A stretch of 24,000 nucleotides of DNA from Castellaniella defragrans (GTDB lineage: Bacteria > Pseudomonadota > Gammaproteobacteria > Burkholderiales > Burkholderiaceae_B), in NCBI RefSeq assembly GCF_014203015.1, contig NZ_JACHIB010000004.1:131454-155453 (forward strand). Direction: 5' to 3'. Shown here piece by piece: positions 2,666 through 5,153 of the stretch. The translations under genes were made by a program, and so were the position numbers. The notes under the pieces were generated by a model, which made no database searches, was not told the origin of the DNA, and saw only the letters and a list, made by a program, of their open reading frames with translations. The first letter of the stretch is position 1, and the number at the start of each line of letters is the position of its first letter.

Positions 2666-2891
2666 TGTAGGTCTCCCGCCCGCCGGAACCGGATGGAACG
2701 CACGCCAGCCGCCCAGTCCACAGCGCGAGAGCGCGGGGCCCGCGCCCCCACGCGCCGCCGCGGGCGCGGGGACCGATCCCCTGCCCCGGCCGGGGCTTTC
2801 CTGGCCGCGCGGGGGGTACGGGTCTATGATGGTCTTCATCGCAGCCCCCTTCACCACAGCCTCTCTTCATCACCCTCCAGGAGCCCGCATC

Positions 2892-3239
2892 ATGGATTCT
2901 CCGATGTATCCCCACCCCACTCCCGAACTGGCCCGGCGGCGCGCCGAACTCGCGCCCGAGGCCCTGTCCGCGTTCAAGGCCTTCAGCAAGGCCGTGTTCG
3001 CCCCCGGCGCGCTGGACGCGAAGACCAAGCAGCTGATCGCCGTGGCCGTGGCGCACGTCACCCAGTGCCCCTATTGCATCAAGGGCCACACCGAAGGCGC
3101 GTCCCGCGCGGGCGCGTCCGGCGCGGAAATCATGGAAGCCATCTGGGTGGCGGCCGAGATGCGGGCGGGCGGCGCCTACGCCCATTCCGCCCTGGCCCTG
3201 CAGACCCTGGACGAACTGGCCGAACGCAAGAAGGCCTGA
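2892..3239 (+). CDS. Carboxymuconolactone decarboxylase (AhpD-like) family protein with CxxC motif
   Basis: 115 aa from the ATG at 2892, with AGGAG 8 nt upstream. Contains AVAHVTQCPYCIKGHT and EAIWVAAEMRAGGAYAH, typical of the AhpD/CMD core domain. Confidence 0.8.
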   Translation: MDSPMYPHPTPELARRRAELAPEALSAFKAFSKAVFAPGALDAKTKQLIAVAVAHVTQCPYCIKGHTEGASRAGASGAEIMEAIWVAAEMRAGGAYAHSALALQTLDELAERKKA

Positions 3240-3249
3240 TGCGCGGCGT

Positions 3250-3279
3250 GAAACGTTTCCCGGCCTGGCCTCATCCAAT
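3250..3279 (+). promoter_or_regulatory. ECF-type promoter candidate (site A): tGAAAC-N17-CATCCAAT upstream of the sigma gene
   Basis: GAAAC at 3250-3254, 17-nt spacer, CATCCAAT at 3272-3279. It ends 27 nt before the GTG start at 3307. Specified bases are identical to the sites at 3593-3622 and 5153-5124. Confidence 0.6.
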
Positions 3280-3306: not shown

Positions 3307-4011
3307 GTGGACATCCAGCTCCAGCACGATCCTGCGGCCACGGACGACCTCGCGCTGATCGGGCGCGCGGCGGACGGCGACCTGGCGGCCTTCGAGGCCT
3401 TGATGCGCCGCCACAACCAGCAGCTCTACCGGGCGGCGCGCAGCATCCTGCGCGATGAATCCGAGGCCGAGGACGCCGTCCAGGAGGCCTGGTGGAAGGC
3501 CTACGGCCACCTGCGGGACTTCCGTTCGGAAGCCCGGCCCGCCACCTGGCTGACGCGCATCGCCATCAACGAGGCCCTGATGCGGCGGCGGCGAAACAAA
3601 ACGCGCGAGGCGCTCATCCAATCCGCATACCAGTCTCCGCACGAACACGACCCCATGCCGACGTACGCTCCCGACACCGAGGCCCCCGCCTCCGCCGGCC
3701 CCGACCAGATGGCCTGGCGCGCCGAACTGCGGCGCCGCCTGGAGCGGCGCATCGACGAGCTGCCCGACCTCTACCGCACCGTCTTCGTGCTGCGCGCCGT
3801 GGACGACATGCCGGCCGCCGAGGTCGCGCTCGTCCTGGGGCTGCCCGAAGCCACCGTGCGCGTGCGCTTCATGCGCGCCCGCCGCCTGCTGCAGGCGGCC
3901 CTGCAGCCGGACTTCGACCCGCGCGCGGCGGGCGCCTTCTCGTTCGCGGGCCAGCGCTGCGACCGCATCGTGGCCGGCGTCCTCGCGCGGGTGCGGGCCG
4001 CGGGCGGCTGA
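3307..4011 (+). CDS. ECF (sigma-70 family) RNA polymerase sigma factor with long inter-domain linker and short C-terminal tail
   Basis: GTG start at 3307 with AGGAG 5 nt upstream. Region 2 (AEDAVQEAWWKAYGHLRDFRSEARPATWLTRIAINEAL) and region 4 (LPDLYRTVFVLRAVDDMPAAEVALVLGLPEATVRVRFMRARRLL) are recognisable. About 35 residues follow region 4 (...FSFAGQRCDRIVAGVLARVRAAGG). Confidence 0.9.
   Translation: MDIQLQHDPAATDDLALIGRAADGDLAAFEALMRRHNQQLYRAARSILRDESEAEDAVQEAWWKAYGHLRDFRSEARPATWLTRIAINEALMRRRRNKTREALIQSAYQSPHEHDPMPTYAPDTEAPASAGPDQMAWRAELRRRLERRIDELPDLYRTVFVLRAVDDMPAAEVALVLGLPEATVRVRFMRARRLLQAALQPDFDPRAAGAFSFAGQRCDRIVAGVLARVRAAGG
3593..3622 (+). promoter_or_regulatory. Intragenic copy (site C) of GAAAC-N17-CATCCAAT inside the sigma-factor coding sequence
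   Basis: GAAAC at 3593-3597, 17-nt spacer, CATCCAAT at 3615-3622, within the codons for RRNKTREALIQS in the linker between regions 2 and 4. The next in-frame ATG is at 3655. Confidence 0.45.
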
Positions 4012-4107
4012 AGGAAGCATCGCCCTCCGGGCACGGCCGCCGGGGCACGGCCAATCAGGTGGCGGGCACGATCGGGACTTCGCCAACGACGTCCCCGCAC
4101 CCCGCGG

Positions 4108-4647
4108 TCAATCGATCCGGCCCTGCTTCAGGATGGCCGCCACGGCGGGAAAGCCCGCCGCGGCGGCCGGGGGCAGCCGCGCGTCCGTATCGGCATAGGG
4201 CGGCGCGGCATCCGCGTCCCCCACCACGATCCGGCCGACCATCCCCGCATGCTCGTGCGGCAGGCAGAAATAGTCGTAGACGCCGGGCGCCTCGAACACC
4301 ACGGTGTAGGACTGCCCCGGCAGCAGATAGTCCGAATTCCACGGCTTCGCGCCCGCCGGCATGCGCAGCGGCCTGCCGTTGGCGGGATGATAGGCCGTCG
4401 AGGTATGGACGTTGCCGGCGTCGCGGTTGACCCAGCGGACGGCCTGGCCCGGCCGGATCAGCAGCCCCCGGGGACGGAACCAGACCTGCGAGCCGCTCGG
4501 CGTGCCCGACATGCCGATCTCGACCGCCTCGTCGGCTCCCGCCGGCCGCGGCAGGACCGCCGCCAGCAGCAGGCCGCCACCGGCCGCGAGCAGCAGCCGC
4601 CGGCGCGGGTCGTGCGGGAGCGCGTGGCCGTGCAGGGGCGCGTTCAT
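4108..4647 (-). CDS. Cupredoxin (plastocyanin/azurin-family type-1 copper protein) with twin-arginine signal
   Basis: 179 aa from the ATG at 4647, which overlaps the upstream gene's stop as ATGA. Tat-like HDPRRRLLLAAGGGLLLAAVLPRPAGA. Copper-ligand block YDYFCLPHEHAGMVGRIVV (C-x2-H-x4-M), with an upstream His in NVHTSTAYH. Confidence 0.8.
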   Translation of the reverse strand: MNAPLHGHALPHDPRRRLLLAAGGGLLLAAVLPRPAGADEAVEIGMSGTPSGSQVWFRPRGLLIRPGQAVRWVNRDAGNVHTSTAYHPANGRPLRMPAGAKPWNSDYLLPGQSYTVVFEAPGVYDYFCLPHEHAGMVGRIVVGDADAAPPYADTDARLPPAAAAGFPAVAAILKQGRID

Positions 4648-5078
4648 TTCGCCACGCGGCTTTCCTGCGCCGCCGGCACGTTCCACAGCACGATGTGGAT
4701 GTGCGGCTCTTCCACGCCGGGATGCCCCGCGTTGTACATGATGTCCACGTGATCCACCTTCGCGCCGGCCGGCACCTTCAGGTCGTTCAGGTGCATGTCG
4801 GGCTTCATCAGCGCCAGCGGGATCATGTAGGTGGTGTTCACCAGGCGGCCGTCATGGTCGTAGCCCAGGAAGGGCCCGGCCGGCAGCGTGGCGGGATCGA
4901 CGAACAGCTGCCCCAGTCCGGGAATGAAGTCGGGCAGCTTCACCAGCGAACTGACCGCCTTGTAGGGGGCGGCCGGCGGCGCCTTGAGCGCCGATGCGCC
5001 GGCCGCCTGGGCCGCGGGCGCGCCCAGGCCGAGCGCCAGGGCGGCCGCGGCCGCCGTCAGGAAGGAACGTGAGGACAT
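4644..5078 (-). CDS. Secreted hypothetical protein (Sec signal peptide, His-rich C-terminal motif)
   Basis: 144 aa; GGGAGA lies 5 nt before the ATG at 5078. Signal peptide MSSRSFLTAAAAALALGLGAPAAQA/AG. C-terminal HVDIMYNAGHPGVEEPHIHIVLW. Translationally coupled to the cupredoxin gene. I cannot assign a family with confidence. Confidence 0.7.
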   Translation of the reverse strand: MSSRSFLTAAAAALALGLGAPAAQAAGASALKAPPAAPYKAVSSLVKLPDFIPGLGQLFVDPATLPAGPFLGYDHDGRLVNTTYMIPLALMKPDMHLNDLKVPAGAKVDHVDIMYNAGHPGVEEPHIHIVLWNVPAAQESRVAK

Positions 5079-5123
5079 GAGAATCTCCCGGTATGCGCGG
5101 CGGGAATCGCCGTGTTTCGCGCC

Positions 5124-5153
5124 ATTGGATGCGCGGTCCGGAAGATCCGTTTC
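5124..5153 (-). promoter_or_regulatory. ECF-type promoter candidate (site B): GAAAC-N17-CATCCAAT upstream of the secreted-protein/cupredoxin operon
   Basis: On the minus strand, GAAAC is at 5153-5149, followed by a 17-nt spacer and CATCCAAT at 5131-5124. It ends 45 nt before the ATG at 5078. Confidence 0.6.

Follow-up and report, generated by a model that had tools for sequence, protein, structure and literature searches.

A copy of the ECF29 promoter motif within the interdomain codons of its own sigma factor gene in Castellaniella and relatives: a candidate self-recognised internal promoter

The stretch of Castellaniella defragrans DNA analysed here (24,000 nucleotides, referred to throughout as the window) carries on its plus strand a sigma factor gene (3307..4011; 234 amino acids (aa); GTG start, preceded by the Shine-Dalgarno (SD) sequence AGGAG) that reproduces exactly, deep within its coding region, the promoter motif presumably recognised by its own product. 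The protein consists of the Pfam domains Sigma70_r2 (residues 32-98) and Sigma70_r4_2 (residues 143-195), with no other domain, is matched over its full length by NCBIfam NF008888 (260.6 bits against a cut-off of 204), and ends in a tail of ~38 residues (about 197-234) with the motif FSFAGxRCDRIV, of which F211, F213, G215, R217 and C218 are invariant in 20 homologues and D219 is nearly so. Its domain layout, RCD tail, neighbouring genes and promoter motif together assign it, on sequence criteria, to ECF29, one of the extracytoplasmic function (ECF) groups. ECF29 is defined by a short (~30 aa) C-terminal extension with an RCE/D motif and by having no anti-sigma factor, and no member of the group has been studied experimentally (PMC7826278). 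Pfam finds no anti-sigma domain among the neighbours of the sigma gene in the window (a CMD/AhpD-family gene and a cupredoxin operon), a novel anti-sigma factor being possible. The published ECF29 promoter consensus, -35 GGGAAC and -10 GCATCCAA, is that of S. meliloti RpoE8, a sigma factor linked to a gene for a blue-copper protein, whose 126-fold overexpression revealed no targets (PMC6180224).

The motif GAAAC-N17-CATCCAAT, which agrees with this consensus, is present in exactly three copies in the window; across 100 dinucleotide-preserving shuffles, which served as the null for this count, the corresponding number is 0.00, and 0.26 matches would be expected in the window if up to two mismatches were tolerated. 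Two of the copies are ordinary ECF29 promoters. Site A (3250-3279, plus strand), an exact match at a position common to most family members, is the canonical autoregulatory promoter, its GAAAC beginning 57 nt 5' of the sigma start codon. Site B (5124-5153, minus strand), also exact and kept in relatives, is the promoter of a convergent target operon that encodes a 144-aa TTHB210-like protein and a cupredoxin. Site C (3593-3622, plus strand) differs from both in lying 286 nt inside the sigma coding sequence, and for that reason it could not yield full-length sigma. Its GAAAC occupies 3593-3597 and its CATCCAAT 3615-3622, on either side of a 17-nt spacer, and 13 of the 13 specified bases match. 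The element is written in codons 96-106, some of them rare: R96-N97 reads CGA AAC and I104-Q105-S106 reads ATC CAA Tcc, the corresponding peptide (residues 95-106) being RRNKTREALIQS. In its bipartite motif, its orientation and its presumed recognition by the same sigma, site C resembles the autoregulatory promoters of ECF sigma factors, as exemplified by the ECF29 consensus of S. meliloti RpoE8 (PMC6180224). Judging from the Pfam limits and from an AlphaFold model, in which residues 78-108 form one helix and 108-127 a disordered stretch, site C covers the final part of the last helix of region 2 and the beginning of the linker. The initial annotation of this DNA had already placed the site in the linker and had pointed to an in-frame ATG at 3655 (Met117), to a 118-aa product and to the absence of an SD sequence before it; all of its coordinates are correct, as is the missing SD sequence, and the exact match, seen against the shuffles, identifies site C as a genuine copy of the sigma factor's own promoter motif.

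Relatives of the locus were gathered from species genomes (80 loci), from metagenomes (16 loci) and by exact protein look-up (seven), and are referred to by L or P numbers where they must be told apart; the best protein hit is 99% identical. The motif G[GA]AAC-N17-CATC[CTG]AAT is found 40-85 nt 5' of the sigma gene in most of 80 related genes. The more distant family members have, in the 140 nt before the sigma gene, 52 sites that combine a -35 of GAAAC or GGAAC with a 17-nt spacer and no more than one departure from CATCCAAT. The spacer of the window sites is 17 nt, compared with 16 nt in the S. meliloti promoter. Many family loci also have a second copy of the motif just past the sigma stop codon or overlapping it, serving the downstream gene. 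The mid-gene copy is limited to an Alcaligenaceae-type clade (Castellaniella, Paralcaligenes, Paracandidimonas and metagenomic relatives), the sigma proteins of which are 53-100% identical to that of the window. In 72 ECF29 loci that are more distant it is missing, and the only within-gene copies there are those that run over the stop codon and act for the gene downstream.

That the nucleotide motif of site C is more conserved than its amino acids require, a point that the initial annotation had proposed to settle by codon-level comparison of orthologues, is borne out by a codon alignment of 22 clade members (the wider look at the site takes in about 24 relatives). Arg96 is encoded by CGA in 16 of these 22 close relatives; CGA accounts for 6.7% of Arg codons gene-wide in the same alignment, and no other conserved Arg column, of which there are 19, has it more than three times. 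Gln105 is CAA in 20 of 21, the other conserved Gln columns being mostly CAG. When the codon columns of the gene are ranked by how surprising they are, R96 comes first, and K98 and A107 are also among the top four. The codons of the spacer vary freely (K/R, T/S, A/N/T, L/I/H/V). Of 200,000 synonymous recodings in which the window's protein and local codon usage were held, 358 (0.18%) recreate G[AG]AAC-N17-CATCCAAT. Between deep lineages, four-fold degenerate sites are 20-62% identical, as against 37% expected from composition; they are thus near saturation, and shared ancestry does not explain the retention of site C. Across the wider family, residues 97 and 105 vary (mostly R/Q/K and P), which argues that the protein fold demands neither Asn97 nor Gln105; plausibly, it is the DNA motif that fixes the identity of these two residues. 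We infer from these comparisons that site C is retained by natural selection, at the cost of constraining codons 96-106.

An explanation that dispenses with any function of the DNA would treat the motif as a by-product of conserved residues, or of a cluster of rare codons that slows translation at the domain boundary. The clade alignment does show little or no variation at R95, R96, N97, I104 and Q105, and rare A-ending codons (CGA, AAA/AGA, CAA, GCA) do cluster here. A motif that so few recodings recreate nevertheless recurs in at least ten lineages with saturated synonymous sites, and residues 97 and 105 are not conserved outside the clade. Variation in the -35 element bears on the rare-codon version directly. 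The canonical sites read GGAAC instead of GAAAC in three lineages (L007 at sites A and B; L099 and L100 at site A), and it is in exactly these three that site C also reads GGAAC, with Arg96 as CGG in L007 and as AGG in L099 and L100. In the GAAAC lineages Arg96 is CGA, or AGA in L102. The first base of the codon thus switches between C and A, and its third base follows the promoter type. Since CGG is commonly used, conservation here concerns agreement with the cognate promoter rather than codon rarity, and the way in which the Arg codon of the GGAAC lineages tracks promoter type argues against translational pausing. We regard the absence of a DNA function as very improbable.

The unusual codon choice is not confined to the motif itself. 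Third-position GC (GC3) is low over codons about 96-113 (3592..3645, plus strand), at 0.62-0.68 compared with 0.82 gene-wide, forming the deepest trough in the gene, which begins at the -35 of site C and reaches ~20 nt past its -10, to about +20 of the putative transcription start. Codon K98 (3598-3600), directly after the -35, is AAA or AGA in all 24 clade members, both of them rare in these GC-rich genes. Promoter matching does not account for this particular preference, since sites A and B read GTT/GGA at the same place.

Site C is also kept in widely differing surroundings. It is exact, or changed only in its last T (which is outside the published consensus), in L088, L098, L101, L102 and L103, none of which has an ECF29 promoter upstream of its sigma gene (scored as absent if none was found within 300 nt 5' of the gene); in L002 and L104, site C is exact and site A has decayed to CATCTAAG or CATCTAAC. 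The gene 3' of the sigma gene is convergent in most clade loci and is not the same from one to the next (the cupredoxin operon, LplA/B or DUF2231); in L088 the target operon is divergent, and site C is still exact. Its retention in such varied loci makes site C independent of site A, of a same-strand downstream gene and of any particular convergent partner. In the window, the cupredoxin gene, the 144-aa gene and an 819-aa gene downstream of the sigma gene are all on the minus strand, so that the initial annotation was right to state that no plus-strand gene follows before 6606; L004 and L005 do not have one either. We accordingly rejected, for these three loci, the notion that site C is the promoter of a downstream plus-strand gene, the downstream genes being convergent. 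The only case of the kind is L103, which has a plus-strand NlpE gene immediately after the sigma gene.

L103 might be cited in favour of an internal promoter with an output other than sigma: a small RNA made from the 3' part or the 3' untranslated region (UTR), antisense interference with the convergent target operon, or expression of a downstream gene. A precedent for the first of these exists in MicL, which starts from a sigmaE-dependent promoter inside the cutC coding sequence (PMC4102768), and the next gene is convergent in most clade loci, being often the sigma-dependent operon itself. Several findings speak against such outputs: the length of the intergenic region runs from negative (in L002 the genes overlap) to more than 100 nt and cannot be aligned among relatives; no terminator-like site after the sigma gene, no unusual fold and no Rfam family were found; and the convergent neighbour differs (cupredoxin operon, LplA, DUF2231), with L088 combining a divergent operon and an exact site C. 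A MicL-like 3' small RNA was rejected on these grounds, the fold z-score being +0.30. Overall, we consider an output of this sort improbable.

The initial annotation had also drawn attention to sequence shared upstream of sites A and C, and had suggested an extended element or a small duplication. The shared letters are real: TGATGCG lies at 3237-3243 (site A) and at 3578-3584 (site C), and the flanking GGCC and CGGCG are likewise present in the window. At site C, however, TGATGCG is the Leu-Met-Arg codons of the family-wide NEALMR(RR), whereas at site A it is confined to the window and the 99%-identical L081, overlaps the stop codon of the upstream gene, and is not found in the other orthologues compared. 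The spacers of the two sites agree, by inspection, at 6 of 17 positions. Read in this way, the resemblance is a lineage-specific coincidence, and neither of the two suggestions survives.

Of the possible roles of site C, the best-supported is that of a selected target of the sigma factor's own holoenzyme. Our favoured explanation goes further and is held with moderate confidence: site C would be an internal promoter recognised by the sigma factor encoded around it, providing feedback, probably negative, from sigma activity to the sigma gene. The sigma holoenzyme would bind site C, and a sense transcript covering only the 3' half of the gene would start near 3627-3631. (This putative start, on the plus strand, is placed by analogy with rpoE8 of S. 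meliloti, whose mapped promoter has a listed sequence that ends 9 nt past CATCCAAT; PMC6180224.) In this manner site C would let the activity of the sigma factor act on the sigma gene, and the resulting feedback, in a family lacking anti-sigma factors, would most likely be negative. There are two tentative candidates for the output, which are taken up below: a 118-aa protein, comprising region 4 and the tail, that is translated from Met117 and competes with full-length sigma, and an effect in cis, in which a polymerase that sits at site C or initiates there obstructs polymerases reading through from upstream. We give neither more than a minor share of our confidence, and the same share to each.

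Several observations weigh against this explanation or limit it. A matrix built from the promoters of distant family members scores site C at 1.0 against a background of -0.9, with site A at 11.1 and site B at 23.5; the matrix is 55 columns wide, penalises GAAAC and contains noise columns, and is consequently uninformative. The bases that follow the -35 are A-rich at site C (AAA/AGA), in contrast with the GTT/GGA of sites A and B. The low score and the A-rich bases, taken together, imply that site C may be a weak promoter or a mere binding site. The covariation between GGAAC and GAAAC types may stem from one evolutionary switch. Site C has decayed in six clade members (L089/L097, L006/L090, L091 and L092) and must be dispensable in some backgrounds. 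Lastly, no SD sequence precedes Met117. Two of the decayed sites have a feature of their own: in L006 and L090 the sequence is GTCAC-N17-CATCCAAT, which is also found upstream of the 144-aa gene in L088 (minus strand, ~1400-1430), and GTCAC may be an alternative -35 that is accepted by the sigma factors of L006, L090 and L088.

One of the two candidate outputs is a brake or decoy that acts in cis: holoenzyme at site C would hinder polymerases arriving from upstream, or would compete locally with sites A and B, and so limit the full-length sigma mRNA when sigma activity is high. Such a brake requires only what the sequence comparisons establish, a selected cognate site within the gene and in the same orientation; it would function with or without site A, and it would account for the missing translation signal as well as for the missing conserved 3' region. 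In interference between tandem promoters, elongating polymerases usually dislodge promoter-bound ones, and the effect would therefore be expected to be weak. As for a decoy, which had been raised in the initial annotation, a single site cannot titrate many holoenzymes, so that titration is quantitatively unattractive. A brake in cis also leaves the low-GC3 stretch extending ~20 nt past the -10 unexplained. We think of this output as possible rather than probable.

The other candidate output is a protein. The in-frame open reading frame (ORF) that starts with the ATG at 3655 (3655..4011, plus strand) would encode a hypothetical product of 118 aa, comprising the remaining linker residues, sigma region 4 and the RCD tail, which might compete for -35 elements or the beta-flap, or bind full-length sigma, and thus serve as a built-in anti-sigma factor. 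The arrangement has its attractions. The Met117 ATG lies 32 nt after the -10 in the window, and an in-frame ATG is found 29-38 nt after it in most orthologues of the clade; Met117 falls in the linker that is predicted to be disordered, so that the product would be a clean domain with its tail; ECF29 has no anti-sigma factor (PMC7826278); the survival of site C where site A is missing would fit a role for a product; and the leader is predicted to be weakly structured (the z-score of the RNA fold around Met117 is -0.14, which is unremarkable). The signals for translation are what is missing. SD strength, measured as the energy of the duplex with the anti-SD sequence, is +0.1 kcal/mol before Met117, compared with -6.9 and -7.4 kcal/mol at the true starts of the sigma gene and the 144-aa gene; at the three starts in the window that have a recognisable SD (the sigma, 144-aa and CMD genes), the range is -6.9 to -10.7 kcal/mol. 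Over 19 orthologues the mean for Met117 is -2.4 kcal/mol, no better than the -3.1 kcal/mol of random 20-mers of the sigma gene, which served as background. Inspection by eye of 3620-4011 did not turn up a start codon 5-12 nt past any GGAG or GAGG. Met117 is kept in nearly the whole clade, members with a decayed site C included, and a Met in the acidic linker (ExxMxD) is common in distant ECF29 proteins that have no site C.

Stand-alone genes for a region-4-plus-tail protein were also looked for, using residues 117-234, and the search returned many short gene calls. The three that were inspected on long contigs (L104, L105 and L106, corresponding to P0121, P0153 and P0201) are the 3' parts of full-length ECF29 sigma genes, two tblastn segments lying in different frames, and are, on this sequence evidence, assembly errors or pseudogenes rather than a separate gene family. 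With the SD missing, a linker Met that is family-wide and the inspected short calls frameshifted, the region-4-only product proposed in the initial annotation is unsupported, and we regard such an isoform, like the brake in cis, as possible rather than probable. Slightly less likely, in our estimation, is the complete scheme in which the antagonist of the sigma factor is encoded by the sigma gene itself: active sigma would fire the promoter in the linker codons, giving a short mRNA and from it a region-4-plus-RCD-tail protein that ends the response. If it were true, an anti-sigma function would be nested within a sigma gene, the control of at least one clade of the anti-sigma-less ECF29 group would be explained, and a regulatory DNA element would dictate Asn97 and Gln105 of the protein that reads the element.

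The neighbouring genes deserve brief mention. The target operon (4108..5078, minus strand) consists of the 144-aa gene (4644..5078; TTHB210-like) and the cupredoxin gene (4108..4686; Pfam Copper-bind), is convergent with the sigma gene and is recognised also by its synteny in relatives. Beyond the 144-aa gene lies the 819-aa gene, and all three of these minus-strand genes are confirmed by homology in relatives. The 144-aa and cupredoxin genes overlap by 43 nt (4644-4686) as called in the ORF list; the GTG at 4686 has no SD sequence (+0.6 kcal/mol), and the true cupredoxin start is probably further downstream. On the other side, the plus-strand AhpD/CMD-family gene (2826..3239; Pfam CMD, NCBIfam AhpD core domain, CPYC motif) has a stop codon that provides the TGA of TGATGCG and lies 10 nt 5' of the -35 of site A; relatives retain the gene in a version that stops a few codons sooner. 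The sigma group classically partnered with CMD genes is ECF41, not ECF29.

The 5' leader that follows site B (5079-5123, minus strand) is conserved, reading CATCCAAT-GGCGCGAAACACGGCGATTCCCGCCGCGCATACCGGGAG-ATG, and is found at the equivalent position in L001, L002, L003, L082, L084, L086, L101 and L102; the same leader also follows the far-upstream promoters of L005, L093 and L097. It contains a small hairpin, GCGGCG-ATTCC-CGCCGC, for which L003 has GCAGCG-ATTCG-CGCTGC, a compensatory change of one pair, and its start resembles the consensus that follows site A in distant ECF29 loci (CATCCAATGGCGTAAAACAG). This sequence may be a leader element of the ECF29 regulon. At the other end of the operon, the convergent intergenic region (4012-4107 in the window) is of very different length from one relative to another and lacks a recognisable terminator, and in L002 of C. 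hirudinis the sigma and cupredoxin genes overlap by ~26 nt at their 3' ends (4689-4714); the transcripts of the two sigma-dependent units probably run together.

Single Castellaniella genomes appear to hold two or three ECF29 paralogues with 61-67% identity and the same promoter motif (P0041 and P0062 in C. defragrans; L002 and L103 in C. hirudinis). The C. hirudinis paralogue L103 has an exact site C and no upstream ECF29 promoter. Cross-regulation between ECF29 paralogues by way of site C is conceivable.

Two bacterial systems bear comparison with site C. MicL likewise originates at an ECF-type promoter within a coding sequence, conserved for a purpose that is unrelated to the full-length protein of the host gene (PMC4102768); unlike the case of MicL in cutC, the host gene of site C is the sigma gene itself, and neither a conserved 3' UTR nor a terminator nor a conserved RNA structure was detected. 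In the SigR/SigR' system of Streptomyces, a sigma-dependent promoter of the sigma gene likewise generates a different product that shapes the feedback loop (PMC4921905, PMC5472188); SigR' is a longer and complete sigma factor, whereas the only possible product of site C would be without region 2. The open-access literature that we searched did not yield a bacterial precedent for a sigma gene with its own promoter in the interdomain codons, or for a natural region-4-only sigma factor. In vertebrates, an internal, self-activated promoter of p53 gives rise to delta133p53, an N-terminally truncated isoform that is dominant-negative. The logic is that of the region-4-only protein, but the promoter is eukaryotic and intronic, and with no sequence or mechanistic relation between the two, the likeness is one of analogy only.

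Site C is a clean natural instance of dual coding, in which a promoter fixes rare codons and, apparently, the identities of two residues in the very protein that recognises that promoter. Should the internal promoter provide negative feedback, by whatever output, its compact form of autoregulation would be of interest to designers of synthetic circuits built on ECF factors. The interest of the site lies in evolutionary evidence that is unusually clean and in its bearing on the regulation of ECF29 sigma factors, which are widespread and have no known regulator; site C offers a concrete handle on the control of the group.

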